Source of the DNA: Mucisphaera calidilacus
GTDB taxonomy: Bacteria; Planctomycetota; Phycisphaerae; Phycisphaerales; Phycisphaeraceae
Direction: 5' to 3'
Assembly: GCF_007748075.1 (NCBI RefSeq)
Contig: NZ_CP036280.1
Location: forward strand, 3,420,001 to 3,452,000
DNA: 32,000 bases
Part shown: positions 12,024 to 32,000 of the stretch, piece by piece
How the letters are laid out: each line of letters starts with the position of its first letter
How positions within the stretch are numbered: the first letter of the stretch is position 1
Notes under the pieces: model-generated
What the model was told of the DNA's origin: nothing
Databases searched by the model: none
Seen by the model: the letters and a program-made list of their open reading frames with translations, nothing else
Made by a program: the position numbers and the translations under genes

Positions 12024-12437
12024 CTAGCTGAATGACGCCGCAGGCCGATACGTCGCCGTACAGCCCGGTGCCTCCGTCGTCGAAACCGATTCCACCGCAA
12101 CACCCTCAGGCAACGCCTCCGCCAGACACGTCCCGATGTGCCACACCACCCGCTCCGCCGTCGGATTCACGCCCGAATCCTTAAACGGCACGCACTCATT
12201 CAAATGAGCGTTCCGCCACGGCCTCAGAATCTCACCCAGCACCGCCTGCAGGTCGTGAAAATCCATCACCGCCTGCATCCGGTCCAGATCCACCGTCGCC
12301 ACCGTCACCGCGACCTCCCAGTTGTGGCCGTGAAGCGGCTCCACCTCGCCATTCGCCAACCGCAGAGCATGCGACGCCGCAAACGCGTCCGTCACCGTGA
12401 TGCTGTACACAGGCTTGCCGCCCTCGCCATCAGTCAT
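12024..12437 (-). CDS. 6-carboxytetrahydropterin synthase / 6-pyruvoyl-tetrahydropterin synthase family protein (QueD-like)
   Basis: PTPS-fold motifs: FAASHALRL...EPLHGHNWEVAVTV (the Zn-binding His triad) and VMDFHDL. ATG 12437 is preceded by caggag. Confidence 0.8.
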   Translation of the reverse strand: MTDGEGGKPVYSITVTDAFAASHALRLANGEVEPLHGHNWEVAVTVATVDLDRMQAVMDFHDLQAVLGEILRPWRNAHLNECVPFKDSGVNPTAERVVWHIGTCLAEALPEGVAVESVSTTEAPGCTATYRPAASFS

Positions 12438-12469
12438 AAGCGTCTCCTGAATGCCTACACTCTCAGTCT

Positions 12470-15816: not shown

Positions 15817-15823
15817 GACCTCA

Positions 15824-16846
15824 TCATCGACGCTCGGGGTAAGTCCCCATCAGGTGAAATGACAACGAATCACGAAGAAAATAGGCCGGGTCCGTCACCG
15901 CCTGACCCAGCAGCAGACACTTGAGCCGACCCAGAACCGTCCCCGTAATCACCGCCGCATCCGCAAACACCTTCTTCAACCACCCATGGTTCTTCAGCCA
16001 GTAAATCCGACGCGCCTCGAACACATACTCAGGCGTGCGCCGCGCTCGACCCACACCCCCACCGCCACGCACCCCCGATACCTGACCCACCAGGTGCACC
16101 ACCCGCGACGCCGGCACATACCAGCAACCAAAACCGGCCAGCCGGCCCTGACGAATCCAGTCCACCTCCTCGTAATACATGAAATACGCCTCGTCCAGCA
16201 GACCCACACGCTCCAGCACCGACCGCCGAACCAACAGGCTCGCACCCGCCACCCAGTCCGTCACAGCCACACGGTCGCTCGCAGGCGGCGCCACACGCCA
16301 CCTCCGCAACAACCACGACACCACACCCAGGTTGATCCGACCCTCAAACTCACTCAGCACCGTCGGAAACCGAAACGCACTCACCTGCACCGTCCCGTCC
16401 GGATCCTCCAGACGTGAACCCGCAAATCCCGCCTCCCCATGCCCCTCCATGAAACGCACCAGCTCCACCACCGCACCCTCACGAATCAACGTATCCGGGT
16501 TCAGCAAGTGCACGTAGTGCGCCTCGCCCAGGTGAGCGTCCGCCCACCGGATCCCCTCGTTGTTCCCGTACGCAAACCCGCCGTTCTTCGGCAAAGGCAA
16601 GATCGTCAGCCACTCCCCCCACCCGTTCTCCTCCCGGGCTTGCTCCAACACCTCAACCGAATCATCACCCGACGCATTGTCCGTCACCACCACACGCAGA
16701 CGACCTCCCACCGCCGACCGGTAACGCTCCACCTCCGGCTCAACCGTCCGCAACGCATCAACCGTCAACGCCGCGCACCGATAATTCACGATCACCGTCA
16801 CCGTGTCCGGAGCCGAACCCTGAACTTGGTCATCACGCTGCGTCAT
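15824..16846 (-). CDS. Family 2 glycosyltransferase
   Basis: GT2 motifs: VTVIVNYRC, VVVTDNASGDDS, LPKNGGFAYGNNEGI, LLNPDTLI. It sits 7 nt upstream of the acetyltransferase gene. Confidence 0.85.
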   Translation of the reverse strand: MTQRDDQVQGSAPDTVTVIVNYRCAALTVDALRTVEPEVERYRSAVGGRLRVVVTDNASGDDSVEVLEQAREENGWGEWLTILPLPKNGGFAYGNNEGIRWADAHLGEAHYVHLLNPDTLIREGAVVELVRFMEGHGEAGFAGSRLEDPDGTVQVSAFRFPTVLSEFEGRINLGVVSWLLRRWRVAPPASDRVAVTDWVAGASLLVRRSVLERVGLLDEAYFMYYEEVDWIRQGRLAGFGCWYVPASRVVHLVGQVSGVRGGGGVGRARRTPEYVFEARRIYWLKNHGWLKKVFADAAVITGTVLGRLKCLLLGQAVTDPAYFLRDSLSFHLMGTYPERR

Positions 16847-16900
16847 CCCCCGACATCATCGGCGATTTACACCCGCCATGACAATCCCCCGCCACACCCA

Positions 16901-18199
16901 TCACCCAAACCAACCCTCGAACACGTCCAGCACCATCGAAAGCTGTTCATCCGTGATCACGTAAGGCGGCATCGTGTACGCATACGTCCCGAACGGCCGC
17001 AGCCACACACCCCGAGCCGCCGCATACGCCTGCAACCCCTTGATCGCTTCCGGATCAAACACCTCCACCACGCCCGTCGCGCCCAGCACACGCGTCGACG
17101 CGATCGCCGGACCCGTCAGAGGCAACAACCGCTCCTGCAACTGCTCCTCGATCTGCGCAATCCGATCCAGATAACCCTCACGCTCAAACACCTCCAGACC
17201 CGCCAACGCCACCGCACACGCCGTCGGATTCCCCATGAACGTCGGACCGTGCATCAACGCGTGCTCCGGATTGTCCGAGTAAAAAGCGTCAAACACCCCC
17301 GGCCGCGTCACCACCGCCGCATGACCCGTGTAACCCGCCGTCAACGCCTTCCCAAGCGTCATCACGTCAGGCACCACACCCGCGTGATCCGCCGCGAACA
17401 TCCGACCCGTCCGGCCCAGACCCGTCGCGATCTCGTCAAAAATCAACAGCAAACCATACGCGTCACACAGCCGACGAGCACCCCGGAGGTACGACGGGCT
17501 GTACATGTTGAAACCGCCCGCCGCCTGCAGGATCGGCTCGCAGATCATCCCCGCCAACTCCGATTCGTGCTCGCGAATCAACCGCTCCAACGCCTCAAGA
17601 TCCTTCTGCACCACCTCCGGCTCGGCATCAAAACCCCCACGCGGCGACGGCGCAAAGTGATGACGCATCAGAATCGGCGCAAACAGATGATGCATCGAAT
17701 CCTCCGGATCCGATACCGCCATCGCACCCGTCGTGTCGCCGTGATAACCCAACCGCAACGCCACCATCTTGTGACGCTGCGGATGCCCCAGGTTCCGGTG
17801 GTACTGCGTCGCGATCTTCAACGCCACCTCCACCGCAACCGAACCCGAATCCGCAAAAAACGTGTGCCGCAGATCGCCAGGCGTGATCGCCGCCAGCTTC
17901 TCCGCCAACCGCTGCGCCGGCTCGTGCGACAACCCCCCAAGCATCACGTGAGGCAAACGATCCACCTGCTCGTGCGCCGCCCGCAGAATCTCCGGATGGT
18001 CATAACCATGAACCACCGCCCACCACGACGACAACCCGTCAATCAGACGCGTCCCGTCCTCCAGCTCAAGCACACAACCCGACGCCGAACGCACGCGGTA
18101 AGGCACACGCGCCAGCTTCATCTGCGCATAAGGCATCCACAACTTCTGATCAGATCGAACCGTCTCAGACGACACAGGGGCTTCCTCACGCTTCACCAC
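16901..18199 (-). CDS. bioA: Adenosylmethionine-8-amino-7-oxononanoate aminotransferase
   Basis: LWMPYAQMK, IDGLSSWWAVVHGYDHPEI, LIFDEIATGLGRTGRMFA, MTLGKALTAGY (PLP lysine) and VWLRPFGTYAYTMPPYVI are BioA-typical. GTG start at 18199. Confidence 0.85.
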   Translation of the reverse strand: MVKREEAPVSSETVRSDQKLWMPYAQMKLARVPYRVRSASGCVLELEDGTRLIDGLSSWWAVVHGYDHPEILRAAHEQVDRLPHVMLGGLSHEPAQRLAEKLAAITPGDLRHTFFADSGSVAVEVALKIATQYHRNLGHPQRHKMVALRLGYHGDTTGAMAVSDPEDSMHHLFAPILMRHHFAPSPRGGFDAEPEVVQKDLEALERLIREHESELAGMICEPILQAAGGFNMYSPSYLRGARRLCDAYGLLLIFDEIATGLGRTGRMFAADHAGVVPDVMTLGKALTAGYTGHAAVVTRPGVFDAFYSDNPEHALMHGPTFMGNPTACAVALAGLEVFEREGYLDRIAQIEEQLQERLLPLTGPAIASTRVLGATGVVEVFDPEAIKGLQAYAAARGVWLRPFGTYAYTMPPYVITDEQLSMVLDVFEGWFG

Positions 18200-18233
18200 A
18201 CCATTCTCCCCTCACCCCGCCTCCCTGTCGAGA

Positions 18234-19103
18234 TCACTGCATCGCATGACGCGCCGCACCAATCGCCGCCGCATAACGACCCGCCTGCGTAAAACGCACC
18301 GAAACGTCCGCCGGAGCCGCAGGCGTCAGGTCACGACGAACACCCGCCATGATCCGATCCAGGTGATATTCCACCACCAGCGACAAACCGCCCATGAACA
18401 CCAACTCGTCCGGACGGTAAATCGCCAGGAAAATCCGCAACGCCCGCACCAGCGCATCCACACCACGCAGCACCCGCGGGTGATCACGCAACGCCTTCAA
18501 TTCCTCACGCGTATTCAACGTCAAACCGTCATCACGCAAACCCCGCGCACCAAGGTACGCCTCCAACGCGCCCCGACCCGCGCCAGGCGTAAACGGCGCA
18601 TCCGCCTCACCACCCGACACATCAATATGACCCAGATGCCCAGGCGTCCCACGCGTCACGATAAAAGGCCGACCCCCATCCAGCACCGCTCCACCCACAC
18701 CCGTACCCAACGCCAGATACAACGAACGACCCGACGTCGGATGCTCGTGATGATCCGCAATCGCCGCCGCCACCGCGTCCGTGCTGATCGTCGCCGGAAC
18801 CGACGTCGGAATCGCTCCGCCAATCCACTCAGGCAGATTCGCCCCGATCAGGTGCGGCACGTTCGACGCCGCCTCCAGCACACCACCCTCACTCACCGGA
18901 CCCGGCACACACAGGCCCACACGCTCAAGCGTCGCGTGATGCTCCGCCGCCAACGACTCCGCCGCCGAACGAATCACACCCGCCAACACCTCACGCGAAG
19001 GCTCGCGATACGCCTCCGTGTCCGACGTCACCGTCTCCTCGCTGTTCGTCAGCAACGCCAGCTTCGTCGAAGTCCCGCCAATATCAATCCCGAGCGTCGC
19101 CAT
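18234..19103 (-). CDS. ROK-family sugar kinase
   Basis: LGIDIGGTSTKLALL (phosphate-1), LALGTGVGGAVLDGG and PGHLGHI are ROK motifs. The Cys-rich zinc motif CXCGXXGC of many ROK kinases is not visible after GHLGHI. Confidence 0.8.
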   Translation of the reverse strand: MATLGIDIGGTSTKLALLTNSEETVTSDTEAYREPSREVLAGVIRSAAESLAAEHHATLERVGLCVPGPVSEGGVLEAASNVPHLIGANLPEWIGGAIPTSVPATISTDAVAAAIADHHEHPTSGRSLYLALGTGVGGAVLDGGRPFIVTRGTPGHLGHIDVSGGEADAPFTPGAGRGALEAYLGARGLRDDGLTLNTREELKALRDHPRVLRGVDALVRALRIFLAIYRPDELVFMGGLSLVVEYHLDRIMAGVRRDLTPAAPADVSVRFTQAGRYAAAIGAARHAMQ

Positions 19104-19106
19104 GGC

Positions 19107-19763
19107 CTACTTCCCAACGTCCTCAACCGGAACGTTCATCAAAGGGTAAAGCGGATCAACCCGCAACGTGTAATGCCACCACTCCGAATCCAACGACTCA
19201 AAACCCGCGCCCACCATCGCCGAACGCAAACAGTCCCTGCGACGACGCGGCCCCTCCGGACCGCCCGCGTAATCGCTGAACGCCCGAGGCGACAACTCGT
19301 CCACACCCGAAGGCATCACGCACAACGCGCCGCTCGCAAGATCTAAAAGCGACACGTCCAACGCCAGCCCGCGGTTATGCATCGAGCCACGCTCCGGATT
19401 CGCCACGAAGTGATGAAGCTCCTCAGGCACAACATGCCAGAACACATACGTCATCCACCACGGCCGATACGCATCGTGAATCACCACGCCGTAACCAAGC
19501 TCACGCAATGCCGCCGCCGCCGCCGCCAACGCCTCCGCCACCACACGCTGAGCCGGCGCGTGCCGTAACACCGGTGCCTCGCCCCCTGTGAAGTATTCGA
19601 TGCTGCTGTACTGCAACCCGTAACGCAACTCAGGAATCAACGCACGCAACTCAACCAGATCAGGCTCCGCCAGACCCGACTCCACCGGCACCGAAGCACG
19701 ACGCGCCTCGGCAAGCACCTCGTCGACCGGCCGCGCAAACTCAAAGGTCAGCCGCTGAGACAT
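19107..19763 (-). CDS. ddpX: D-alanyl-D-alanine dipeptidase (VanX/DdpX, peptidase M15D)
   Basis: VIHDAYRPWW, GSMHNRGLALDVSL (the SxHxxGxAxD zinc motif) and SEWWHY are the VanX-family signature. There are 3-nt gaps to both neighbouring genes. Confidence 0.85.
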   Translation of the reverse strand: MSQRLTFEFARPVDEVLAEARRASVPVESGLAEPDLVELRALIPELRYGLQYSSIEYFTGGEAPVLRHAPAQRVVAEALAAAAAALRELGYGVVIHDAYRPWWMTYVFWHVVPEELHHFVANPERGSMHNRGLALDVSLLDLASGALCVMPSGVDELSPRAFSDYAGGPEGPRRRRDCLRSAMVGAGFESLDSEWWHYTLRVDPLYPLMNVPVEDVGK

Positions 19764-19766
19764 CGC

Positions 19767-22085
19767 TCACGCACTGGCCTTCGCCAACGCCGGATCACGC
19801 GGGTCCGCCAGCAGGTAACCGAAGATAAACGCCACAAAGAAACCGACCACCGACCACCACGGCCAGGCCAGCGTCCCTCGTAGTGAGGCCAGTTCGATAT
19901 CCATCCCCAGCGGGATCAGTTGAGACCTCAGGAAGAGTACAAGGCCCTCGTCCGTCAGCTGAGTCCTCCTGATCTCCTCGATCAACTCCTCAGTCGGCTC
20001 GATTTCACGGGCGGCCAACTGTGTCTCGACGTAGGCCGAAAAGGCTTCTGACGCCTTCATCTCGTCCTGATTGTTCATGGCATGCCGAAGATCAAACACG
20101 ACGTTCTTCTGGCTCGACTCATAGCGGCTCGACAGCGCGCTGTAGTACAGGCTGGCACCGAGCTCTGAGATGCGTAGCGACGAACGCATCTCGGTATCGA
20201 TCTTGGGCACACCCAACTGCTCCAGCACCAGTGTCGCTTGCACAAAAGCCGAATCCGTCAACTGCTGCTGGCCAATCTCGTCATCGCGATCGAAGGCATC
20301 GTCCTTGAGCTGAATGCCCAGGGCAGCCAACTGCTCTCTCTTGTTGACGTAGGCCTGCTGGACCTCATCAGCCGTGATCGAGCCATCCGGCAGCGACTGG
20401 ATCCGAGTGATGACGATGTCCTGATAGTTCACAGCACCGCTATAGGTCAGCCAGATCATCAATGCGACCCCAAGAGCGAGAACCGGTGTCTTCAACACGG
20501 TCCTGATCTGGACCTGAAGATCGGTTCGCATAGAAGCCGCATAGAGCCATGTCGCTAGAAGAATGCTCCCGAAAGCCCAGGCAACGGTCTGAGCCCACGC
20601 TTGATCGTGCCACACGATCGCGAAGATCGTCATCACCGACAGCGGCGCCGAGAAGACCAGCCCGTACCCCGAGACCCGGAGCGGCAGGAACCCCAGCAGA
20701 AACGCCGCCAGCAGCGAACCCACCGAGTAGGACGCCAACGCCAGGGCCAGGTCCAGGATCGGCAGCTTGCCCTCCTGCTGCACCACGTACACGACGTACG
20801 CCGCCAGGCACAGCACCACGCCCCAGAACACCACCAGCAGACGCGAGATGAACACCGCCTCCGCCCCGTGCTCCTCGATGTCGTCGCCCTTCTTCTGACG
20901 CCAGCGCAGGTACGTCACCGACATCGTCGTCTGCGACAACGCCGCAAGGATCGAGTCCAGCGACGAGATCGCCGCAGCGAAGATGCCGGCGATGATCAGC
21001 CCCGTCACACCCGTCGGCAGCTCCGACAGGATGAAGATCGGGAAGATCCGGTTGGGCTCGGCCTCGTAACGCGCCAGGGCGTCGCCCACCAGCGGGAACT
21101 CCTGGTAGAAGACGTACAGGCCGGCACCGACGGCCAGCATCATCGCCGTGATGATCTGACCGGCGTAGGCCGCCATCACCGCGATCTTCGCCTCACGCTG
21201 ATCCTTGCAGCAGAAGATCCGCTGTGCCATCAGCTGATCCGTCCCGTACACGCCGACGTTCCCGAACACCGACGCGAACGCCGCCGTGTAGATCGTGTAA
21301 GGCTTCACCGCCGACCACTCCAGGTCCCACAGCTGCCACTTGTTCGCCTCGTCCGCCACCGTCATCATCTGCTCCACGCCGCCCGGGAGCTCCGACACGA
21401 TCGTCACCAGCGCGATGATCCCGCCCAGCACGAACACCAGGAACAGGATCACGTCCGTCCAGATCACCGTCGCGATGCCGCCCATGATCGTCCAGATGAT
21501 CGAGATCAAACCGATGATCGCGATCGACGCCACCACCGGCGGAATCCCCGTCGCCGACTCCAACGCCCCCAGCTGCTCGGCCATCACCAGCTCGAGGATG
21601 ATCGCCGTCAGGTAGACACGCGCCGACTGACCGAGCACACCGCCCAGCGAGAAGAGCGCCGTCGTCACCCACTTCGCCGACTCGCCCAACTGGTTGCCCA
21701 TGTAGTCGTAAGGCGAGTAGATCTCGTGCTTGTAGTAGGCCGGCACCAGCACGAACGCCACGATCAGACGCGCCATCAGCACGCCCACCAGGCCGAGCTG
21801 CAGGTAGGCGAAGTTCCCACCCGGCCCGAAGACGATGAAGGGTGCTCCCACGAACGTCACCGCCGAGATCTCCGTCGCGATCGACGACCCCGCCACTGCG
21901 TACCACGGCATCTTCTTCCCGCCCAGGAAAAAATCCTTCACCGAGGACTGCTTGCCCGCCAGCACGCCACCCAAAACCGTCGTCACGACCAGGTAGCCAA
22001 ACACCACCAGCCAGTCGATCCACGTGAAAGCCCCCACAATGGAGCCGGGTTCAGCCTGAGCGATGAGTGGGAGATAGTCAGTCAT
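19767..22085 (-). CDS. Sodium:solute symporter (SSS) family transporter with about 270-aa C-terminal extension
   Basis: The first 500 aa or so are a typical SSS core (FFLGGKKMPWYAVAGSSIATEISAVTFVGAP..., GGIATVIWTDVILF). Two more TM helices follow, then a soluble helical region of about 190 aa (NYQDIV...ELASLRGT) and a final TM helix (WPWWSVVGFFVAFIFGYLLA). Confidence 0.85.
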   Translation of the reverse strand: MTDYLPLIAQAEPGSIVGAFTWIDWLVVFGYLVVTTVLGGVLAGKQSSVKDFFLGGKKMPWYAVAGSSIATEISAVTFVGAPFIVFGPGGNFAYLQLGLVGVLMARLIVAFVLVPAYYKHEIYSPYDYMGNQLGESAKWVTTALFSLGGVLGQSARVYLTAIILELVMAEQLGALESATGIPPVVASIAIIGLISIIWTIMGGIATVIWTDVILFLVFVLGGIIALVTIVSELPGGVEQMMTVADEANKWQLWDLEWSAVKPYTIYTAAFASVFGNVGVYGTDQLMAQRIFCCKDQREAKIAVMAAYAGQIITAMMLAVGAGLYVFYQEFPLVGDALARYEAEPNRIFPIFILSELPTGVTGLIIAGIFAAAISSLDSILAALSQTTMSVTYLRWRQKKGDDIEEHGAEAVFISRLLVVFWGVVLCLAAYVVYVVQQEGKLPILDLALALASYSVGSLLAAFLLGFLPLRVSGYGLVFSAPLSVMTIFAIVWHDQAWAQTVAWAFGSILLATWLYAASMRTDLQVQIRTVLKTPVLALGVALMIWLTYSGAVNYQDIVITRIQSLPDGSITADEVQQAYVNKREQLAALGIQLKDDAFDRDDEIGQQQLTDSAFVQATLVLEQLGVPKIDTEMRSSLRISELGASLYYSALSSRYESSQKNVVFDLRHAMNNQDEMKASEAFSAYVETQLAAREIEPTEELIEEIRRTQLTDEGLVLFLRSQLIPLGMDIELASLRGTLAWPWWSVVGFFVAFIFGYLLADPRDPALAKASA

Positions 22086-22290
22086 GGCGGCAGCGTATCA
22101 CCTTCACAGAAAGGTTGTAGAAGAACCATAAGACCCGCCCATCATAACGAGCCACCCCACTCCCTGCTCTCCAATCCCCACGCAAACTCGCTCCGATACC
22201 TGCTCTCATCCCCCTCTCAACCAGAACACGCCCCGCCAATCCCGATCCCGAACCTGAGCCAGTCGAAGGCATCCGGGTGTGAATCACCGA

Positions 22291-22326
22291 AAATAAAAAA
22301 CGACGCCCTTCCCTCGAAGGACGTCG
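22291..22326 (-). terminator. Rho-independent terminator of the pseudopilin gene
   Basis: Minus-strand hairpin cgacgtcctt-cgaggg-aagggcgtcg (22301-22326, 9 bp with one mismatch). TTTTTTATTT follows on the minus strand (plus-strand 22291-22300 aaataaaaaa). It begins 30 nt after the stop at 22357. Confidence 0.6.
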
Positions 22327-22356
22327 CTACAAGACTCATCAAAAAATCGGTCCGAC

Positions 22357-23250
22357 TTACTCAGCCTCGATCTGCTGATCGATGGGCGTCCACAACGCCT
22401 TGTACGTGTTCTCCGGGATCCCCGACTCATCCGCATTGGAGACCAGACTTGTCGCACCCTCAAACGAGACGTGGCCATCCGCAAACGCGATGTTGATCGA
22501 ACCGCCACGCGACTTCGTCGGATCGCTGTTGCTGCCGTGACGCGTCCAGTCAAGCTCCGTGGTATATGCCGCCGCAGGCCAGCCCTGAGGCGGGGTGACC
22601 GACCGGCCCAAAAAACCCGTCCAGCGCTGAGCCATGATGCCAGGACCCGTCACACCGGGCGGTGCAAACGCCGCGTCTTCGCCGATGGTCGAACGTGTGT
22701 ACGAAAACTCTGATCCAGGACCAAAGTTCTCCGAGCGAGCCTCCGTGATCAGCACCGTCTTCGATGCGTTGTTCGAGTCCGCGTTGAAGGTCCAGCCCGC
22801 ATCGACCGCGCTCTGGAACCACGACACACTGTGGTGGGACGAGGCAAAGACGTTCATCGCGACCGATCGCGCCGGCTCCAGCGCCTCAAGGGACCCATCG
22901 CCGGGGTTACCCGGATCACTCGGGCAGATCATCACGCCACCGCCGACCGTGTTGACGCCTGCTTCCGTATCAGTCGATGGCAGATAGGTTCCGATTCTCT
23001 CGAGGTCGTACCAGTACTCTTTGGCAACGTCATCATTCTGCGGAAAGCTCGACTTGTTATCTGTGGCGTAGGTGAACAGGCTCGTGGCAATCTGCCGTTG
23101 GTTCGCCGCATCAAGCACCCTTCTGGCTGCCTCACGTGCCGAGCTCAGCGCCGGCAGCAAAATACCGATCAGCAACGCGATGATTGAAATCACCACCAGC
23201 AACTCAATAAGCGTAAATCCTTGCGATTGGACGTTCGTGCGTGCGGTCAT
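22357..23250 (-). CDS. Prepilin-type N-terminal cleavage/methylation domain protein (DUF1559-like type II pseudopilin)
   Basis: The N-terminus [34 protein letters not shown] is the class III signal/methylation motif. The C-terminal [12 protein letters not shown] matches the DUF1559 tail common in Planctomycetota. ATG 23250 is preceded by caggag. Confidence 0.85.
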
Positions 23251-23367
23251 ACCACGCTCCTGAGGGGTTCGGAGTAGAGGAGGGAGTTCAGCGCCCGACG
23301 ATGAAGCCGCCGGGCAAAGCCCTCCCGCCGCGTCTCCGCGACAGGAAGGGTGTAGCAGGCTATTCGC

Positions 23368-24954
23368 TCAGCGGCGACGACCCACCGCAAGGGCACCCAG
23401 CCCGAACAGCGTCGCCAACACCGGCTCCGGTACCGAAGGAGCCGACTGATCAAAATTGCTCGCCAGCACCGACAGGTCCAGAAGATCAACCGACGTGTCA
23501 GTGTTGAAATTCCCGCCCGCCCAGCCGGCCGTCGCCTCGAAGTTCGAAGCCAACGCCGACAGGTCCAGCAGGTTCACCGTCTTGTCCAGGTTCGCGTCAC
23601 CAAAGAGCGTCCCCAGCACGTCGCCGATCATCACATCAAAATCATCACCGTCCACGACGCCGCTCTCGTCAAGGTCGTAGAGCAGATCCGACGAACCCGT
23701 CCGGACCGCCGCGGCCAGCAGATCAATGTCCGCATCGTTCACCACGCCGTCATCGTTGAAATCACCCACCAGACCCGGATCATCACCCGCGATCTGGAAC
23801 ATGTGAATCACGCCCGCCGTCGGCTGCAACACAGCCAGCAGACCGGTGTCCGCATCAAAATCAAAGTCATACCAAGCAAACGTGCTCAGCGGCTCAAACG
23901 TCCCCCCCTCATTGTCCGGGTCGGGCAGCCAGTTGAACGTCACGTCCGCCGCAACACCGTCAGGCGTCACCGCCTGAACCACAGACGTGAAATCACCCGT
24001 CGCGCCCGACTCCGGGCGGTCGTTGTACAGAATCACGTCGTTCGACACATCAACGTCATTATCAACCGCGACATAGGCCACGTTCTGACCCACCACGAAG
24101 TCGCCCTGCGTCACGCCCAGGTCGATCCGGTTCACACTCGCGATCGTCCCGTCCGAAGCACGCACGGCACGGTCGAGATAGTTGTTGTGACGCACATAAA
24201 CGTCGCCGTTCGCGCCAAACTCCATGTCCCGGTTCGTCTCAAAACCGTCCGGGTTCTGCACCGGGTCACCGTTGCCGACGATCATCACGCCATCAGCCAG
24301 CGCGTCGATCACGTCACCCGTCGCCAGATCATGCGTCCCGACGCCAAGCGTCAAACCCGATCCCGGTGCCAGCCACGCGGCACGATCCGGACCCGCGCCG
24401 TTGTAGCCCGGATCAAAATCAACACCACGAGCCACACCCTCGTTCGAACCGTCGCCGATCGCCACCGCGGCCGCCGCGGAAACATCCCACATCGAGAACG
24501 ACGGACGCGGATCGCTGTCAGGCGACTGGCGACCCGTCAGGTCAAACGCCGCCAGGACCGTGTCGCCCTGCACCGAAATGTCGTTAAACCCGCGGAACAC
24601 CGTACCTACCGTCTCAGCGAAACGATCGCCATACGTGCCGCCCGCAATCCCCGTCGCCGTCGTCGCGTTCGTGACCTCGATGATGCCCGCCGTCGCCAGC
24701 GTCGTGTTCGAGTTCGAACCCGTGTTGTCAAAACCACCCACAAACAGCCGGTCACCGTCCAGCGCCACCGTCGCGACACTGCCGATGTAAATGTCCGGGT
24801 TCACAGGCGTCGCCGGATCAAAAAAGCCGCCGCCCGGCTCCCACGCGCTCAACGCGGTCACGTCAATCACCGCCACCTGGTCGAAAACAACCTGCGCCGA
24901 CGCCGACGCCGAAAGGGCCGCAACAAGGCAGGCCGCCGTACTCAATGACTTCAT
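23368..24954 (-). CDS. Secreted PEP-CTERM protein with dockerin-like/EF-hand repeats (paralogue A)
   Basis: ATG 24954 is preceded by gaggagg. Signal peptide MKSLSTAACLVAALSASASAQ. The C-terminal tail (23368-23766) carries DFNDDGVVNDADIDLL, YDLDESGVVDGDDFDVMI, GDANLDKTVNLLDLSALASNF, GNFNTDTSVDLLDLSVLASNF, and then VPEPVLATLFGLGALAVGRRR (PEP-CTERM anchor). Confidence 0.8.
   Translation of the reverse strand: MKSLSTAACLVAALSASASAQVVFDQVAVIDVTALSAWEPGGGFFDPATPVNPDIYIGSVATVALDGDRLFVGGFDNTGSNSNTTLATAGIIEVTNATTATGIAGGTYGDRFAETVGTVFRGFNDISVQGDTVLAAFDLTGRQSPDSDPRPSFSMWDVSAAAAVAIGDGSNEGVARGVDFDPGYNGAGPDRAAWLAPGSGLTLGVGTHDLATGDVIDALADGVMIVGNGDPVQNPDGFETNRDMEFGANGDVYVRHNNYLDRAVRASDGTIASVNRIDLGVTQGDFVVGQNVAYVAVDNDVDVSNDVILYNDRPESGATGDFTSVVQAVTPDGVAADVTFNWLPDPDNEGGTFEPLSTFAWYDFDFDADTGLLAVLQPTAGVIHMFQIAGDDPGLVGDFNDDGVVNDADIDLLAAAVRTGSSDLLYDLDESGVVDGDDFDVMIGDVLGTLFGDANLDKTVNLLDLSALASNFEATAGWAGGNFNTDTSVDLLDLSVLASNFDQSAPSVPEPVLATLFGLGALAVGRRR
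23461..23585 (-). repeat. In-frame 87-nt (29-aa) tandem duplication encoding the LLDLSxLASNF dockerin-like unit
   Basis: The identical 13-mer ccgacaggtccag occurs at 23469-23481 and 23556-23568, with similar flanks (gccagcaccgacaggtccagaagatcaacc vs gccaacgccgacaggtccagcaggttcacc). Confidence 0.6.
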
Positions 24955-25044
24955 CTCGAAACCTCCTCGGGTTGGTTCTGATTCACACATAGACGTGCTC
25001 GATCGGTTCACTCAGTTCAGCCGGAACGGTACACATGGATCCGA

Positions 25045-25060
25045 ATACTTATAGAAGTAT
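25045..25060. promoter_or_regulatory. Palindromic motif ATACTT-ATAG-AAGTAT upstream of PEP-CTERM gene A (candidate operator or promoter element)
   Basis: A 6-bp inverted repeat with a 4-nt spacer, 91-106 nt upstream of ATG 24954. It shares the CTT-N4-AAG core with the sites at 26377-26392 and 30873-30888. Confidence 0.25.
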
Positions 25061-25104
25061 AAAGAAGGGATCGCCAAATGCCAGTCAATCCGTCCCGATT
25101 TACG

Positions 25105-25157
25105 GATAAAAAGTGGAAAAGAGCGAGGCTCGCACGCTCAGGACGCACGAGCCTCGC
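25105..25157 (-). terminator. Rho-independent terminator of PEP-CTERM gene B
   Basis: A perfect 10-bp stem, gcgaggctcg / cgagcctcgc (25123-25157), with a 15-nt loop. On the minus strand it is followed by tcttttccacttttta. It starts 30 nt after the stop at 25187. Confidence 0.6.
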
Positions 25158-25186
25158 AGATTAATAAGCACAGGCTAATCAAATGA

Positions 25187-26296
25187 TTAGCTGCCGCGAC
25201 GAGCCAGACCCAGCAGGCCCAACGCAATCAGGCTGGCCGAAGCCGGCGCCGGAACCGCCGTGCCACCGAACAGGTACACCAACCCGTTCTGGTTGTCCGC
25301 AATCGCCAGAACCTTGTTCGCCTCGTCGTACGAGAAGTCGTAGATCGTGTTGCCGGCAGCCGCAAACACGAACTGGGCCGAACCGTCACCCGTCATGAAA
25401 TCAGCCGGGTTCGCAACGCCCGCGTACTTCGGAACCGAGTTGTCCACGTCCGCGTCAATCACGAACATGTTGTCCGTCGCAACCGGACCACCCGAGAAAC
25501 CCGAGAAACGCTGCGACAGGATCAGGTAGTTGTTCCCGTCACCATTGAAGTCATACAGCGCCGCCGTGTTCACCGCCGACTGGAACGTCAGCTCCTTGTC
25601 CCAGATCTGCTGCGTGCCGGCACCGCCGCCGAGCGTCTGGAAGTTGTGCGGACCCACACGCGTGCCACGCGAGAGACCCTCATCGTTGATGACGTACAGG
25701 TCGCCGTTGTCCGCGATGTCAATGTCGCGATAACCCGAACCCGCATCCGGGTTCCAAAGCGAAGCACTGTTGTCCAGCAACGCCGGAGCCGCAGGATTGC
25801 TCAGGTCAAACAGCGTGCGGCTGCCGCCACGCGTCAGAACAACCCAGCCCGCGCCGCCGCCAGCCGCGTCGCCCGGATCGTAAGCAACGCCGTCAACACG
25901 CGAAAAACCGAAGTCGGCCTCGGTCAACGCCGAAACCAGATTGCCGCTCTTGTCGAAAATCTCAACGTTGTCCAGGCCGCCGCCCGCGTTGTTCGTCGCC
26001 GCAACCACGTACTCGGGCCCCGTGTCGATCGACACAAAACCGTTGCCCGCCAACGCCGCAGAACCCGCGGTGTTCGACACCGTCGGCGTGCCGAAAATGT
26101 CCGTCACGGTCGTGAGCACGCCGCCGCCAAACAGGCCGCCGGTGTAGAGCGTGTTGCCCTCGATCGCCACCGAGCCGGGAGCCTGAGCGCCCAACGCGGC
26201 GTAATCAATCGTGCCAAGGTGAAAGAAATCCACCGCAGACGCCTGAGCAGCGAACGCAGCGGTTACAAGGGTTGCCATAGCAGCAGTACGGTTCAT
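25187..26296 (-). CDS. Secreted PEP-CTERM-like protein (paralogue B, no dockerin module)
   Basis: ATG 26296 is preceded by gggagaagag. Signal peptide MNRTAAMATLVTAAFAAQASA. The C-terminus AVPAPASASLIALGLLGLARRGS is a PEP-CTERM variant. The body aligns by eye with paralogue A (RDIDIADNGDLYV vs RDMEFGANGDVYV; TIYDFSYDEANKVLAIADNQNGLVYLF vs AWYDFDFDADTGLLAVLQPTAGVIHMF). Confidence 0.75.
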   Translation of the reverse strand: MNRTAAMATLVTAAFAAQASAVDFFHLGTIDYAALGAQAPGSVAIEGNTLYTGGLFGGGVLTTVTDIFGTPTVSNTAGSAALAGNGFVSIDTGPEYVVAATNNAGGGLDNVEIFDKSGNLVSALTEADFGFSRVDGVAYDPGDAAGGGAGWVVLTRGGSRTLFDLSNPAAPALLDNSASLWNPDAGSGYRDIDIADNGDLYVINDEGLSRGTRVGPHNFQTLGGGAGTQQIWDKELTFQSAVNTAALYDFNGDGNNYLILSQRFSGFSGGPVATDNMFVIDADVDNSVPKYAGVANPADFMTGDGSAQFVFAAAGNTIYDFSYDEANKVLAIADNQNGLVYLFGGTAVPAPASASLIALGLLGLARRGS

Positions 26297-26376
26297 GGAC
26301 TCTTCTCCCATATCAGGGTGGTAAAAATGATGACTCAGTCGAAAATCGACAGACAATGCCTAAGCATCTGACGCAA

Positions 26377-26392
26377 ACTCTTATACAAGAGT
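26377..26392. promoter_or_regulatory. Palindromic motif ACTCTT-ATAC-AAGAGT upstream of PEP-CTERM gene B (candidate operator or promoter element)
   Basis: A perfect 6-bp inverted repeat with a 4-nt spacer, 81-96 nt upstream of ATG 26296. That is nearly the same relative position as the site upstream of paralogue A. Confidence 0.3.
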
Positions 26393-26482
26393 ACCAGCGC
26401 CCGACCGCCGTTCAAGGCCCAACACGCTTTTTTTGTTCAACAATGACCACAAACACAGGACACACGCGCGAAACTGGAGAAC

Positions 26483-27577
26483 CTAGGCATCCTCGGGCGG
26501 CGCCGACGCCGAGTCACGCGCAATCAGATGCGTCCGCAACACCGTGTCCGCCACCGTCGGCATCGAACCGCCATCCAGCAACCGAACCATCGTGTCCACC
26601 GCCACACGACCCAGATCCACCAGCGGCTGATGGATCGTCGTCAGCCGAGGCGACAAGTGCTCCGCGCTCGGCGGATCGTCCACCGCCACCACCGAAAGAT
26701 CCTCCGGCACACGCAGATTCATACGACCCGCAACCTCATAAACATCCAACGCCAGGTAATATCCCGCCGCGAAAATCGCCGTCGGACGATCCTTCGACTC
26801 CAGAATCCCCACCAGACGATCCTTGTCCTCCGACGCCAGACGCCAACTCGACGCTTCCACCGTCCGGTCCCCTGACACCGCAATGTCCAGACGCTTGCAG
26901 ATCTCATCAAAACCGCGCCGACGATCACGCGTGTCCGACAAGTCATTCATCCCGCCGACATACGCAATCCGACGATGACCCAGATGGTGCAGGTACTCCA
27001 CCGCCTGACGACTCACGTCATGATTGTCAATCCCCACCGACGCGATCGTCGACACCGACGAACGAGCACCAATCACCAGCATCGGCGCACGACCGTCAAC
27101 CTCCGCCGACAACTCCTCGATGTGCTGGTCGGGCGGATTGATCAGCAAAAAACCCTTGCAGTTCGGCGGCTGACGCGTGCCCCACGGCAGAATCGTCGGC
27201 TCAATCAGCGAATCGTCCGAACGCTGACGTATCCCCTCCAGAACCTGACCGTGGTAGTAGTCCGCGATCGACGCCTGCTCATTAAACAACACGCCAATCC
27301 GACGCAGCTGCCTCGGACGATCCTTCCGGTCAATCACAAACGTACCGCGGCCCTGACGACGATCCAGAATCCCGATCGACACCAGATCCTGCAACGCTCG
27401 GTGCGCCGTCACCAGCGACACCGACAGCTGCTGACTCAACTCCTTCGTCGACGGGATACGCTCGCCCGCGCGAAACACCCCCGCGTCAATCGCCGCGATC
27501 ACCGCCTCCTTCACCGTCTCGTAAAGAGGACGTCCCTGCTGAGGCTTCACCGGCTTGAGTTGCTGATCGTCAGTCAC
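26483..27577 (-). CDS. GntR-family regulator of the AraR subfamily (GntR winged-HTH + LacI/PBP1-type sugar-binding domain)
   Basis: N-terminal GntR HTH: PLYETVKEAVIAAIDAGVFRAGERIPSTKELSQQLSVSLVTAHRALQDLVSIGILDRRQGRGTFV. The C-terminal 270 aa are LacI/periplasmic-binding-like (IGVLFN..., RIAYVGG, PTAIFAAGYYLALDVYEVAGRMNLRVPEDLSVVAVDD). GTG 27577 is preceded by ggag and overlaps the upstream stop by 8 nt. The listed ATG 27655 would overlap by 86 nt. Confidence 0.8.
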   Translation of the reverse strand: MTDDQQLKPVKPQQGRPLYETVKEAVIAAIDAGVFRAGERIPSTKELSQQLSVSLVTAHRALQDLVSIGILDRRQGRGTFVIDRKDRPRQLRRIGVLFNEQASIADYYHGQVLEGIRQRSDDSLIEPTILPWGTRQPPNCKGFLLINPPDQHIEELSAEVDGRAPMLVIGARSSVSTIASVGIDNHDVSRQAVEYLHHLGHRRIAYVGGMNDLSDTRDRRRGFDEICKRLDIAVSGDRTVEASSWRLASEDKDRLVGILESKDRPTAIFAAGYYLALDVYEVAGRMNLRVPEDLSVVAVDDPPSAEHLSPRLTTIHQPLVDLGRVAVDTMVRLLDGGSMPTVADTVLRTHLIARDSASAPPEDA

Positions 27578-28523
27578 GCGCGTCTCCGTTATCTTGCTCG
27601 GTGACCACACGGATGCCCAGGTGGTTGGCCACCGAACGCCACCCCTTGGCATCACTGGGCATGTTCGTCACAGGCGGCTCGTCCGTACCCAGCCACGCGC
27701 CGCGATCAAAATAAAACGACGACGACCCGCCACCATCCAGATTGATCGCCGTCATCGCGCCCGCATCAATCATGATCTCCGCCAGCTCAGGCAGCGTCAC
27801 ACCAATGCTCCACCCCGCGCGACGACCATCAATCACCGCGATGATCAGCGTCCGGCCCGAAGCATCCGTGCCCACCGCCGTCCGAGGATGACGACGAGCC
27901 GGCGCCACACGCGCCGTCGCGCCCGTGTTCGCATAACCCGTCACCAGCAACCCATCCGTCTCGCCCACCTCCGCATGTCCACCAACCCCGGCAACCCCGT
28001 CCTCGATCTCAGGAACCATCGCCGCGTCCACCGGACCGATGTAGATCGTCCCGTCACGCAGCACCGCCACCGCCGGGTCCGCCGGATAACCCTCCACCTC
28101 GCGAGGCGGCGAAACCACCACCCCATCATTCACCGACAAACCCAGAATGTCCGTCCCGCCCTCCTTCATGAACGCATAAAAGTTGGCGTTGATCGCCAGC
28201 ACCGCACCCGTCTCCTGGGCCCATTCGTTCGTCGGCTGGTTCGACGCCTCCGCCGCCGGGTTACCCCCGTGACCCTCAGGCAAAGGCGACGTCGTGATCA
28301 CCTCCAACGCCGGGTCCGTCAGATCCACCCACGCCAGATAACCCCGGATCGGCCCGTCCGCCGTCTCCGCGAAATAAGCCTCCGTACGGATCGACGCCGA
28401 CTCCGGCACCGGCAACGGCTCAGGCGCCACCACCTCCGCCGGTTGCGACCGGCAGCCGGCAAGCACCACCACCACACAAAGGCAGGCCGCTAAACGCTCA
28501 AGCCGCATCAAACTCAAAAACAT
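27570..28523 (-). CDS. Phosphodiester glycosidase family lipoprotein (DUF2233/NAGPA-like)
   Basis: AINANFY, GLSVNDGVVVS, PRTAVGTDASGRTLIIAVIDGRR...GVTLPELAEIM and AINLDGGGSSSFYF are the family signature. ATG 28523 is preceded by agaggtgg. The signal peptide has the lipobox VVLAGC. Confidence 0.8.
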   Translation of the reverse strand: MFLSLMRLERLAACLCVVVVLAGCRSQPAEVVAPEPLPVPESASIRTEAYFAETADGPIRGYLAWVDLTDPALEVITTSPLPEGHGGNPAAEASNQPTNEWAQETGAVLAINANFYAFMKEGGTDILGLSVNDGVVVSPPREVEGYPADPAVAVLRDGTIYIGPVDAAMVPEIEDGVAGVGGHAEVGETDGLLVTGYANTGATARVAPARRHPRTAVGTDASGRTLIIAVIDGRRAGWSIGVTLPELAEIMIDAGAMTAINLDGGGSSSFYFDRGAWLGTDEPPVTNMPSDAKGWRSVANHLGIRVVTEQDNGDARD

Positions 28524-28618
28524 CAAACCACCTCTGTGTGAATCGCCGCGCAGACACCACGGTCGGAACTGACAGATCAAGCCCTAGTCTAACGACTCTC
28601 TATTGATCGGGTTAGCGC

Positions 28619-29575
28619 TTACAGCCGAAGGCCGTCGCGGTGAATCGCCGTGAACACCGCCTCAAACGCGCGCATCGTGTTCACGTGCGCCTCGGGCAAC
28701 GTCCCCTGATGATAAACCCCGAACACATAGTGCTCGTCCATCTGCACGTCGTAGATATACCCCACCTCCGAAACCGCACCCGTCCCAGGCCACCAGCCCG
28801 GCTTGTTCAGCGTCACGAACGCCGGATGACCCGCCAGCTTCCCCGTCACCTCCCCCAAACCCTCCGCAACATAAGAATGATTCGTCAGACTCAGCCAGTT
28901 CGGCAAATGGTTATAGAACGTTGTCCCGCGAACATCCGGGCCCGCCAGCACCGCCGCCGCCAGGCGACAGAAATCGTCCGTCGTGTACACGTTCGACCGC
29001 GTCTTGACCCCCGACGTCTCCGGCTCCGCATCAAACGCCGGCCGCTCCGGAATCGTCGTCACCACTTCCCCGCCCCGGTACGCCTTGATGACCCGGCTGT
29101 GCGAATACGCCGGCCTGCGGAAGTGCCGACGCACGATGCTGTCCTTGATCCCCCACGACCGCATCGCCTCGTGCGTCTCACGCGTCCCCACCAGCTCGTG
29201 CAGCGTGCAGAAACCCGAATTGCTCGATAACACGATCGTCGACGCCAGCAGACGACGCAGCGAGATCGGCAGGTCGTCGCCCACCTCGATCACCGTGTCC
29301 AGATCCCACCCATACCGATCCATCACCCCGAGCGCCAACGCGACCGTCGCCAGCTTGATCGTCGACGCCGGGTAAAACTCCAACGACCCCGTGTCACGCC
29401 ACCGCGCCGCCCGAACCGTCGCCGTCTCGCGATCCACACGCGCCAGCGTCAACGCCGAACCCTCAGGCAGATCAACCAACTCGTCAAGCCCCGCCGCCGA
29501 AGCCTCCAGCACGATCGGCAGCGACACCTCGGGCAGGTCCAGCCAGGGCGACGACGGATCCGTCAACGCGCCCAT
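28619..29575 (-). CDS. Serine hydrolase, class A beta-lactamase/PBP-like fold
   Basis: FYPASTIKLATVALAL (SxxK), VLSSNSG (SxN-like) and NKPGWWPG (KxG-like) sit at class A-like spacing. The ATG at 29575 shares one nucleotide with the stop codon of the upstream amidase gene. Confidence 0.65.
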   Translation of the reverse strand: MGALTDPSSPWLDLPEVSLPIVLEASAAGLDELVDLPEGSALTLARVDRETATVRAARWRDTGSLEFYPASTIKLATVALALGVMDRYGWDLDTVIEVGDDLPISLRRLLASTIVLSSNSGFCTLHELVGTRETHEAMRSWGIKDSIVRRHFRRPAYSHSRVIKAYRGGEVVTTIPERPAFDAEPETSGVKTRSNVYTTDDFCRLAAAVLAGPDVRGTTFYNHLPNWLSLTNHSYVAEGLGEVTGKLAGHPAFVTLNKPGWWPGTGAVSEVGYIYDVQMDEHYVFGVYHQGTLPEAHVNTMRAFEAVFTAIHRDGLRL

Positions 29576-30855
29576 CAGTACGACTGCCCCGCCGCATGAT
29601 TCGTGTGACGCGGACGACCCGCCGGCTCCACCACCGGCTCCTCACCCGTCAGGTCCAGCCGGAAACGCTGCGGATAATTGTGATGCTTGTGGTAGTTCGC
29701 GTGATGGACCATCAGCGTCCGAACGTTCGGCTTGTCCGCCTCCGCCTCAGGCACCGCGCACGTCGCATGCAGCACCTTCGTCGCCGGGTCATACGTGTGC
29801 GGCACCGCCACCCCGTCAATCGTCACACGCATCGTCGACGACAGAATCCGCTGCCGATCACTACCCCACCAGCCAGGCATCCCGTCATCCAAAGTCGTCT
29901 CGATCTTCAGCTCCGATTCCGCCACCGTCGCGACCGGAAGCGACTGCGTCGGACGGCCGCCATACGCATAGTCCACCAGGCCCAGGTAGATGCCGTAGGC
30001 CTCCTTGAGGTTGTAGTGGGGGTCACGCAGACGCTGCTCCTCACGCGGGTGCGTGAAGAACGACAGCTCCAGCAGCACCGCCGGCACCTTCGTGTAACGC
30101 ATCACGCCAAAGCCGCTCTCGTACATCAGCTGATCCGACAGCAAAGGCGACGTCAGACCCGCCTGATACGTCTGCATCGTCCGGAACGTGTTGAACGCGA
30201 TGTGCCGCGCCACGTCCAGCTCAACCTCCGCCCAGTCCGACTCGCCGTGGTACCAGATCGACGTGAAGTTCGCCGTCGGCCGAGACGCGTTGTGATGAAT
30301 CGAAATAAACAGGTCCGCACCCACGCCGCCGTCCGGCCGCTCAATGTTGTTCGCAAACTCCGCACGCCGCTTGAGCGTCCCCTTCACCGCATCGTTCGCC
30401 ACCTCGGAGGTCTCGCCCTCACGCGTCAGATGAACCACGCAACCCGCCTGCTCCAGAAGCTCTCGCAGCAAAAACGCCACACGCAGGTTCATCTCCGCCT
30501 CACGCACGCCCGTCGGGCCACGCTTGTAACCCGCCACGTCCGCCTTGCCGCCATGCCCCGGGTCCAGCACGATCACCATCCCCTCGAGGTACTTCTCAGC
30601 AGGGTGCCTCGGGATCGGCAGGTAAACCCCGTCCGGGTCCCACGCGTCACGATCCTGCAGCCGCGCCATCGCCTCCTCCAGCGGCGCCGGCTCCCAACCC
30701 TCCTCGCCGAACGCCGGCGGCTCCACCACCACCGGCTCAGGTTCCGGCTCCGGCATCGGCTTGGGCTGACACGCAAACAACGAGAACACCAGTCCAACGG
30801 CAACAAGACCGAAAAAAGCGGCTCGCAGCGAACGGAAGGGGTAGTTTGTGGGCAT
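29575..30855 (-). CDS. N-acetylmuramoyl-L-alanine amidase (Amidase_3 family) lipoprotein with C-terminal extension
   Basis: VIVLDPGHGGKADVAGY, EAEMNLRVAFLLRELL, ADLFISIHHNAS and PAVLLELSFFTHPREEQ are Amidase_3 motifs. The N-terminal signal has the lipobox-like SLFAC. About 130 aa beyond the catalytic domain are unassigned. Confidence 0.85.
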   Translation of the reverse strand: MPTNYPFRSLRAAFFGLVAVGLVFSLFACQPKPMPEPEPEPVVVEPPAFGEEGWEPAPLEEAMARLQDRDAWDPDGVYLPIPRHPAEKYLEGMVIVLDPGHGGKADVAGYKRGPTGVREAEMNLRVAFLLRELLEQAGCVVHLTREGETSEVANDAVKGTLKRRAEFANNIERPDGGVGADLFISIHHNASRPTANFTSIWYHGESDWAEVELDVARHIAFNTFRTMQTYQAGLTSPLLSDQLMYESGFGVMRYTKVPAVLLELSFFTHPREEQRLRDPHYNLKEAYGIYLGLVDYAYGGRPTQSLPVATVAESELKIETTLDDGMPGWWGSDRQRILSSTMRVTIDGVAVPHTYDPATKVLHATCAVPEAEADKPNVRTLMVHHANYHKHHNYPQRFRLDLTGEEPVVEPAGRPRHTNHAAGQSY

Positions 30856-30872
30856 GGCTTGCCTCCGGGCGA

Positions 30873-30888
30873 AGTCTTACATAAGAAT
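30873..30888. promoter_or_regulatory. AGTCTT-ACAT-AAGAAT motif in the divergent amidase/GHL10 promoter region (candidate operator)
   Basis: CTTACATAAG has the inner palindrome CTTA-CA-TAAG and the same CTT-N4-AAG core as the sites at 25045 and 26377. It matches the 26377 site at 11 of 16 positions. It lies 53-68 nt upstream of ATG 30941 and 18-33 nt upstream of the amidase ATG. Confidence 0.25.
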
Positions 30889-30940
30889 AGGTCTACACTG
30901 TATCGCGTTGCATCCTAACCCGTCATCGTGGAGGTTGTTC

Positions 30941-32000
30941 ATGTCACGTCTTCTCATCCTCTGTCTGGTGCTGATCATGAGTCCACTTGTCCGAGCCGAG
31001 GCCCAGCCCGAAGTCCGCGGCACCTGGATGACCACCACCGCCAACGACGCCATCGCCGACCCCGCCAACACCGCCGAGAGCATGAAACGCCTCCGCGCCA
31101 TCGGCCTCAATACCGTCTACGTCGAGACCTGGAAGAACGGCTACACCCAGTTCCCCTCCCGGGTCCTGCTCGACACCGTCGGCGTCGACCGGCGGCCCGC
31201 CCTCGTCAAGGCCGACCCCAGCGACTCCGACGAGAGCGCCGCCTCCGCCGGCCGCGACCTGCTCCAGGAAACCCTCATCGAGGCCCACCGCAACGGACTC
31301 ATCTACGTCGCGTGGTTCGAGTACGGCTTCATGGCCTCTTATAAAGACACCGACAACCACCTCCGACGCCTCAAGCCCGAGTGGCTCACCAACACCGCCG
31401 AAGGTGAGCAGGTCTCCAGCCAGAACCCCTTCGTCTGGATGAACCCGCTCCACCCCGAGGTCCGCGACTTCCTCATGGGCATCATGCTCGAGGCCGTCGA
31501 CAAGTACGACCTCGACGGCGTCCAGCTCGACGACCGCATCGCCTGGCCCGTGACCATGGGCTACGACCCCTACACCATCGAGCAGTACAAGCTCGAGCAC
31601 GACGGCGCCGCGCCGCCCGCCGATCCGCGCGACCCGGACTGGGTCCGCTGGCGTGCCGAGAAGGTCGGCGACTTCGCCGAGCGCTTCTACCGCGAGCTCA
31701 AGCAGAAGCGGCCGCACCTGCTGGTTTCGATCAGCCCGGCGATCTATCCCTGGAGTCTGGAGAACTACGCGTGCGACTGGAAGACGTGGTCGCGGCGGGG
31801 TTGGATGGATGAGTACCTGCCGCAGATATACCGCTTCAATTACGAGACTTATGAGCGTGACTGGCCGGCTCAGATGGACGCGGCGGGCCCGGACCGGCTG
31901 ATGGACCTGATCGCGGGCATCCGCGTGGTGGGCGAGGGGCCGGACACGACGTGGCCGGAGATGGTGCAGAAGATGAACCTGCCCCGCACGACCGGCGCGG
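30941..32000 (+). CDS. Glycoside hydrolase-like family 10 (GHL10/DUF187, YngK-like) secreted protein, 3' end outside window
   Basis: This ORF is not in the supplied track because it has no stop within the window. ATG 30941 is preceded by gtggagg. I translated it by hand to nt 32000 with no stop. Signal peptide MSRLLILCLVLIMSPLVRAEA, then VRGTWMTTTANDAI...MKRLRAIGLNTVYVETWKNGYTQFPS, LIYVAWFEYGF and GVQLDDRIAWP, typical of PF02638-type hydrolases. Confidence 0.8.
   Translation, partial: MSRLLILCLVLIMSPLVRAEAQPEVRGTWMTTTANDAIADPANTAESMKRLRAIGLNTVYVETWKNGYTQFPSRVLLDTVGVDRRPALVKADPSDSDESAASAGRDLLQETLIEAHRNGLIYVAWFEYGFMASYKDTDNHLRRLKPEWLTNTAEGEQVSSQNPFVWMNPLHPEVRDFLMGIMLEAVDKYDLDGVQLDDRIAWPVTMGYDPYTIEQYKLEHDGAAPPADPRDPDWVRWRAEKVGDFAERFYRELKQKRPHLLVSISPAIYPWSLENYACDWKTWSRRGWMDEYLPQIYRFNYETYERDWPAQMDAAGPDRLMDLIAGIRVVGEGPDTTWPEMVQKMNLPRTTGA

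Follow-up and report, generated by a model that had tools for sequence, protein, structure and literature searches.

A sharp switch of replication-strand codon signature inside an intact GHL10 gene of Mucisphaera calidilacus, a candidate recombination junction between alleles of opposite polarity

Mosaic genes can arise through allelic replacement between diverged lineages, as is known for the penicillin-binding protein genes of Streptococcus and Neisseria. At icd of Escherichia coli, e14 and phage 21 bring in a replacement 3' end of the gene. Abrupt changes of base composition along a strand are also met at the replication origin, where the skew turns from C-rich to G-rich, and at the ends of recent chromosomal inversions, where a sharp boundary separates blocks with equilibrium skew of opposite sign. 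Here, we describe a stretch of 32,000 nucleotides (the window) from Mucisphaera calidilacus that ends inside a GHL10 gene, referred to as gene A, in which synonymous codon usage changes from C-ending to G-ending codons within a few codons (Table 1). The window is part of the closed genome of strain Pan265 (CP036280), a single 3,486,541-bp contig from an axenic isolate (PMC8882080).

Gene A resembles the mosaic penicillin-binding protein genes in that the reading frame is intact, the signature changes abruptly at an in-frame homologous position, the two parts seem to evolve differently, and mosaic signals appear in several lineages of the same gene. However, its signature is a replication-strand stamp at synonymous sites instead of overall divergence, the two alleles involved would be mismatched at most third positions, and the candidate donor type is that of the G-type relatives. 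The switch from C-rich to G-rich and the asymmetry to its left, which covers both gene orientations over more than 31 kb, are also what an oriC skew switch looks like, but the step here lies inside a coding sequence, with neither DnaA boxes, an AT-rich unwinding element, nor nearby dnaA/dnaN in the window and the syntenic regions of relatives, and it is missing at the same place in three relatives. The sharp boundary with equilibrium skew of opposite sign in each block is shared with recent chromosomal inversions; whereas an inversion endpoint would disrupt the gene and alter its neighbors, gene A and the surrounding gene order match those of relatives. As at icd, the gene is intact with a 3' part of different synonymous-site make-up, and an island follows the gene in the closest relative (L084, described below). 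Unlike icd, no remnant of an old 3' end was found in the L084 island, no integrase was seen, and the 3' part looks like any other chromosomal allele of the clade.

The plus strand of the window is C-rich from base 1 to about 31.7 kb, with a GC skew of -0.06 to -0.39 in 1-kb windows. In 150-nt windows, the skew is -0.16 to -0.28 over positions 30950-31599, and the last 350 nt are G-rich, with a skew of +0.09 to +0.20 (31650-31999). At four-fold degenerate sites, the skew per gene in the C-rich block ranges from -0.30 to -0.90 and is between -0.6 and -0.9 in most genes. For example, the plus-strand gene for DnaK has C314/G16 at its four-fold sites, and the minus-strand gene for BioA, scored on the plus strand, has C178/G11. 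Because the plus strand is C-rich in genes of both orientations, the strand bias of the window is of the replication type and not of the transcription type. Over positions 1-31699, C outnumbers G about 15:1 at four-fold sites and A exceeds T on the same strand, regardless of gene orientation. The whole loci of three relatives (L001, L082, and L084) have the mirror-image asymmetry, and most of the other Phycisphaerae loci that we fetched are weakly skewed; so extreme a strand asymmetry is unusual and seems to be confined to the Mucisphaera clade. This replication-strand bias at synonymous sites is among the strongest known to us and amounts to a built-in label of the replication strand on which a piece of DNA evolved. 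Within the strongly C-type region, G and C are about equal at the four-fold sites of three sub-blocks (19887-20530, 22516-23020, and 25577-26280, in the SSF transporter gene, the pilin-like gene, and a PEP-CTERM protein gene), which could be older imports that have partly re-equilibrated, or sequence with a fast turnover. Neither a tRNA nor an Rfam family was found in the window.

Table 1. Coordinates of the features of the M. calidilacus window
Feature	Position (nt)	Strand	Details
C-/A-rich plus-strand block	1..31699	both gene orientations	replication-type asymmetry
Conserved upstream cluster	18234..30855	-	ROK kinase, M15 dipeptidase, SSF transporter, pilin-like protein, two PEP-CTERM proteins, GntR, NAGPA, class-A beta-lactamase-like protein, Amidase_3
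GHL10 (PF02638) gene A, codons 1-353 of 460	30941..32000	+	ORF intact, ATG at 30941, open at window end; protein QDU72994.1
Synonymous codon-usage change point, proposed recombination junction	31694..31706	+	codons 252-256, GAG CTC AAG CAG AAG; likelihood change point and codon-by-codon comparison with relatives
G-/T-ending codon segment of gene A	31700..32000	+	four-fold sites G34/C10/T5, skew +0.55

Gene A matches the Pfam profile PF02638 over residues 24-301 (E = 2e-59; 201.6 bits against a cut-off of 27.9). An initial annotation of the window, made from the letters alone, had pointed to a reversal of codon preference in this gene, and its hand tallies proved exact: CCC:CCG is 10:1 and CTC:CTG is 18:4 up to position 31609 (third positions C154/G50), and the same ratios are 3:10 and 1:7 from 31610 on (third positions G69/C48). 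Its statement that the reading frame runs uninterrupted across the switch is also borne out, as the translated ORF is 100% identical to the 460-amino-acid M. calidilacus protein, which is colinear with its orthologs. To locate the switch, we used a codon-family likelihood model trained on plus-strand genes, with those of the window defining the C regime and those of the relatives the G regime. The likelihood is highest for a change at codon 254 (nt 31700; 2-lnL support interval, 31694-31706), and the log-likelihood ratio for the G regime is +89.6 beyond this point and -192.5 up to it. Codon usage thus changes in a single step, sharper than initially described. Four-fold sites read C41/G6/T2 in codons 150-253 and G33/C10/T6 in codons 257-353. 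All four-fold families take part in the shift except Gly and Arg, both of which retain some C, and since it is the synonymous families that shift, we rejected an artefact of amino acid composition as the cause.

The reversed state stands alone in the window, and chance does not account for it. Among all 4,757 four-fold sites, tiled end to end within genes in blocks of 25, no other block had G clearly in excess of C, and outside gene A, G never led C by more than one site in a sliding 25-site scan. The G-rich state is visible for 300 nt only. C-ending codons return at codons 348-352, but adding a return to C at about 31981 as a second change point improves the fit by a non-significant 1.75 lnL. 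The nearest intergenic DNA lies 615 nt and 760 nt from the step, and the coding DNA around it has a G+C content of 59 to 72% in 150-nt windows. The C-type part of gene A also contains, in codon-aligned antisense, one of two long ORFs of the window that have no family match (30944-31717, minus strand); the listed start of this ORF at 31717 reflects a His codon and is no real gene boundary. The other (1543-3678, plus strand) has a translation rich in S, T, P, A, and R and looks like a wrong-frame or antisense artefact.

A protein-guided scan of genome contigs yielded 80 loci of relatives. Three relatives carry the same cluster: L001 (Mucisphaera sp., on a 3.25-Mb contig), L082 (a Phycisphaeraceae MAG), and L084 (a Logan contig). 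Their common order is M15, SSF, further genes, GntR, NAGPA, the beta-lactamase-like gene, and Amidase_3, followed by GHL10 gene A, an acetyltransferase gene, and a second, inverted GHL10 gene (B). The upstream cluster in M. calidilacus has the same order and the same orientation relative to gene A as in these relatives, which shows that the junction is not a rearrangement breakpoint. Along the window, accession numbers increase (QDU72993 for the amidase and QDU72994 for the GHL10 gene); the QDU and WP numbers give gene order only and no genome position, and neither a skew plot nor anchoring accessions were found in the papers and supplements. An inverted GHL10 paralog, which the initial annotation had proposed looking for in the genome, is indeed present: gene B lies 0.8 to 2.2 kb downstream of gene A in all three relatives and is QDU72999 in M. 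calidilacus, five CDS downstream. By accession number, four CDS separate A from B in M. calidilacus, as in L084. In L084, gene A is followed by a lower-GC island (L084:11405-13071) with a SocA_Panacea-domain gene and two small ORFs, and then by the acetyltransferase gene. The island is missing from L001 and L082, and the CDS between A and B in M. calidilacus are QDU72995-72998.

All three relatives are uniformly G-rich on the gene A strand over 17 to 21 kb, the whole of gene A included. Their four-fold skew is +0.5 to +0.96, the exceptions being two ORFs of the L084 island (+0.20 and +0.33). Compared with these relatives, the M. calidilacus locus bears the opposite stamp to the left of the step and the same stamp to its right. 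In the part of gene A that matches the G segment, the skew of the relatives (+0.60 to +0.72) is about the same as that of the window. Synonymous-site identity between the window and the relatives is about 30 to 35% in the C segment and about 60 to 70% in the G segment, and among the relatives it is about 70 to 75% across the gene. Over the codons of the G segment, identity between the window and the relatives (about 64 to 65%) is close to that among the relatives themselves (67%), and the protein encoded by codons 254-353 is 91% identical to that of L082. A test of the leading strand from gene orientation was uninformative because the loci share the same genes, and in L001 adk has no ribosomal-protein operon next to it.

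We put at about even the chance that homologous recombination joined, at the step, two alleles that had equilibrated on opposite replication strands. The mutation bias of the group brings four-fold sites to about 80% G on the leading-type strand and to about 80% C on its complement, and it is so strong that any stretch of DNA bears the stamp of the strand on which it evolved. Gene A would then be a mosaic, formed when two Mucisphaera-group lineages that carried the locus on opposite replication strands recombined; the part to the left of nt 31700 carries the C stamp, and the part from 31700 on carries the G stamp, as do all three of the relatives sampled. Having fallen at homologous in-frame positions where the gene is most conserved, the crossover would have left the protein intact. 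As gene order is unbroken, a one-sided change of polarity in place needs diverging forks, that is, an origin, and the only alternative is homologous replacement from a lineage of opposite polarity. Lineages with the alternative, G-type signature exist at this locus, as seen in all three of the relatives. The step is resolved to about 12 nt with equilibrium values on both sides, and such sharpness is more readily explained by a fresh junction than by a mutational gradient.

We lean toward the right-hand side as the imported, or non-equilibrated, one. The tract would measure either some 0.3 kb, with its end near 31980, or more than 5 kb, extending past paralog B. A gene-conversion tract had been among the initial suggestions; a replacement tract is what we favor as well, but between lineages and not between copies in one genome, since no second A-type copy is among the protein matches from M. 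calidilacus. Should the step be such a seam, sequence alone would suffice to place crossovers between diverged lineages to within a few codons, and recombination would take place even between alleles with differences at most third positions.

Protein-level comparisons of gene A also hint at different histories along the gene, with boundaries at other places. Relative to L001 plus L082, the substitutions unique to M. calidilacus number 14 versus 5 in codons 78-160, 5 versus 19 in codons 161-349, and 12 versus 11 in codons 350-449. Neighbor-joining trees of successive regions differ in topology and in branch lengths, and support shifts from M. calidilacus with L084 (83%, codons 25-140) to M. calidilacus with L001 and L082 (94 to 100%, codons 141-460). 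At the protein level, the boundaries are found near codons 155-176 and 326-349 and thus away from codon 254. L084 contributes part of the signal, and the phylogenetic breakpoint near codons 155-176 may be a feature of its gene and not of the M. calidilacus one. Several observations count against recombination. The zone of low M. calidilacus-specific divergence begins near codon 161 and not at codon 254. Identical runs at the junction are only about 11 nt between alleles of opposite polarity, and with runs this short and most third positions differing, RecA-type recombination would be very inefficient. Furthermore, there is no other patch of reversed polarity in the remaining 31.7 kb of the window.

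Gene A of L084 (L084:10001-11404) is peculiar in its own right. Over codons 176-460, its distance from the other three is in places that of an outgroup, with 35 to 42 differences in codons 254-353, and its branch carries 70 substitutions and is strongly G-enriching, which suggests that the L084 gene, too, is recombinant. An ortholog on a 9-kb contig of an uncultured Phycisphaeraceae MAG (L004:5213-6580) has a C-to-G step of its own at homologous codon 251 (log-likelihood ratio, 29.3), across which the fraction of G at four-fold sites rises from 0.17 to 0.65. The 5' part of this ortholog is nearest the Mucisphaera clade (74 to 80% identity), whereas its 3' part has closer relatives in other lineages; the contig carries another GHL10 gene just upstream, likewise with C-rich and then G-rich blocks. 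The L004 step could stem from a chimeric short-read assembly. The step position shared with L004 is the 3' edge of the protein's most conserved block, which is where crossovers between diverged alleles would be expected.

For the region beyond the window, we used the G-minus-C content implied by the amino acids at codon positions 1 and 2 as a proxy for polarity. On the M. calidilacus branch, the 116 substitutions in five minus-strand genes to the left of the step add up to a shift of +47, each gene being positive; unflipped control branches averaged about -0.14 per substitution. Paralog B shifted by -9 in 26 substitutions on the M. calidilacus branch, which is control-like, and pairwise versions of the test agree. 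These protein-derived values suggest, with a likelihood ratio of about 8, that paralog B has kept the ancestral polarity. With B unflipped, the G-type state would extend for at least about 5 kb, and a G-type state that reaches B means either a long tract or no tract at all, which counts against recombination. Weaker hints of an earlier return to the C type come from the C-ending codons 348-352 and from M. calidilacus-specific substitutions, which are dense after codon 350.

That leading-strand syntheses diverge at about nt 31700 inside the coding sequence, as a true and long-standing switch of replication direction with each side equilibrated in place, is unlikely in our judgment but has several results on its side. 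The C-to-G direction of the skew along the strand is of origin-type polarity, as the initial annotation had stated, and equilibrium values are present on both sides. Unbroken gene order is in its favor too, given that a one-sided change in place logically calls for diverging forks, as is the retention of ancestral polarity by paralog B in the amino-acid-level test, and no recombination between highly diverged alleles would be needed. However, the step falls inside an intact gene with 59 to 72% G+C, more than 600 nt from intergenic DNA, and the window has neither a DnaA-box cluster nor an AT-rich stretch. The motif TTATCCACA, with at most one mismatch, has 2 matches in the 32 kb against 1.84 expected, neither of them within 2 kb of the step. 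The earlier remark that no DnaA-box cluster or AT-rich element is visible was right, and the caution against an origin that went with it was justified.

The relatives also argue against an origin at this place. The three with the same gene order have no switch here, and neither dnaA nor dnaN was found within 10 to 14 kb to the right of gene A in the two whose DNA reaches that far; the origin would therefore have arisen anew inside the gene. In addition, a mutational boundary is not expected to be sharp to about 12 nt. We rate as rather improbable an unconventional origin that lies inside an intact conserved coding sequence, has moved there in one lineage, lacks visible DnaA boxes or an AT-rich element, and can be read at a resolution of about 12 nt; such readability of the divergence point would be owed to the extreme mutation bias of the clade. 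If gene A does hold a true divergence point of replication, it would have an origin within a gene, which would be very unexpected. A terminus was rejected on account of its wrong polarity and because there is no AT-rich dif-like sequence at the step.

An integrative element that inserted into gene A and brought a replacement 3' end, so that the G-type 3' part and the small island downstream are element DNA, has a slim chance of being correct. Such an insertion would fit the gene remaining intact despite its change of composition, the low-GC island with SocA_Panacea that follows gene A in L084, and the match between M. calidilacus and L084 in the number of CDS between A and B. However, the displaced remnant of the 3' part of A was not found in the L084 island, and L084 has the island and yet a gene A that is uniformly of the G type. 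The G segment has the codon spectrum and the protein of a chromosomal Mucisphaera allele, as its closeness to L082 over codons 254-353 shows, and paralog B should be flipped if an element were responsible but appears unflipped.

A chimeric join in the published genome, which the initial annotation had suggested for the case of a repeated gene, or another artefact of assembly or consensus would fit a junction that is perfectly sharp and in frame, but we regard it as very unlikely. The genome is a closed single contig of an axenic isolate (PMC8882080), and a chimera presupposes that the culture contained another organism, about 25% diverged. Moreover, gene A is unique, with no second A-type match from the species and neither an inverted nor a direct repeat of it in the window.

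Highly improbable, in our estimate, is a codon-usage pattern intrinsic to the gene, many Phycisphaerae orthologs of which use C-ending codons more often in their 5' part than in their 3' part. Among 78 orthologs, the four-fold skew of the 3' part is on average 0.13 higher, and all 11 significant change points run from C to G. However, the shift in M. calidilacus is 1.3 skew units, ten times the family average, and the gene is uniformly of the G type in the three relatives with extreme skew, so mutation bias overrides any intrinsic preference; an intrinsic codon gradient was rejected because its effect is ten times too small.

The initial annotation had also proposed that inverted GHL10 paralogs recombined and inverted the DNA between them, which we give next to no credence: although the inverted paralog does lie downstream in M. 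calidilacus and its relatives, A and B share only 23 to 27% protein identity, both halves of the M. calidilacus gene are orthologous to the A-type gene (79 to 83% identity), and the C-terminal half of the protein is 80 to 83% identical to A orthologs versus 26 to 37% to B, findings that refute A-by-B recombination. An ordinary inversion endpoint was rejected as well, given an intact gene with ancestral neighbors on both sides. The probability that remains is spread over other readings and explanations that we did not consider.

The conserved cluster to which gene A belongs (18234-32000 and the syntenic loci) encodes, besides the upstream genes in Table 1, two GHL10 (YddW-like) proteins and an acetyltransferase; the M15 enzyme is a D-Ala-D-Ala dipeptidase and the SSF protein is a Na+/solute symporter. 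Judging by these gene families, the cluster looks like one for the recycling of cell-wall sugars or peptides. In the 85-nt divergent intergenic region upstream of gene A (30856-30940), there is a motif, AATAGGTCTACACTGTAT, which we take to resemble GntR-family operators. At the other end of the window, an ORF at 175-828 on the plus strand has no Pfam match at E <= 1e-5, and its exact sequence with this start codon is not in the protein collection; its translation looks like an FtsQ/DivIB POTRA-domain protein.
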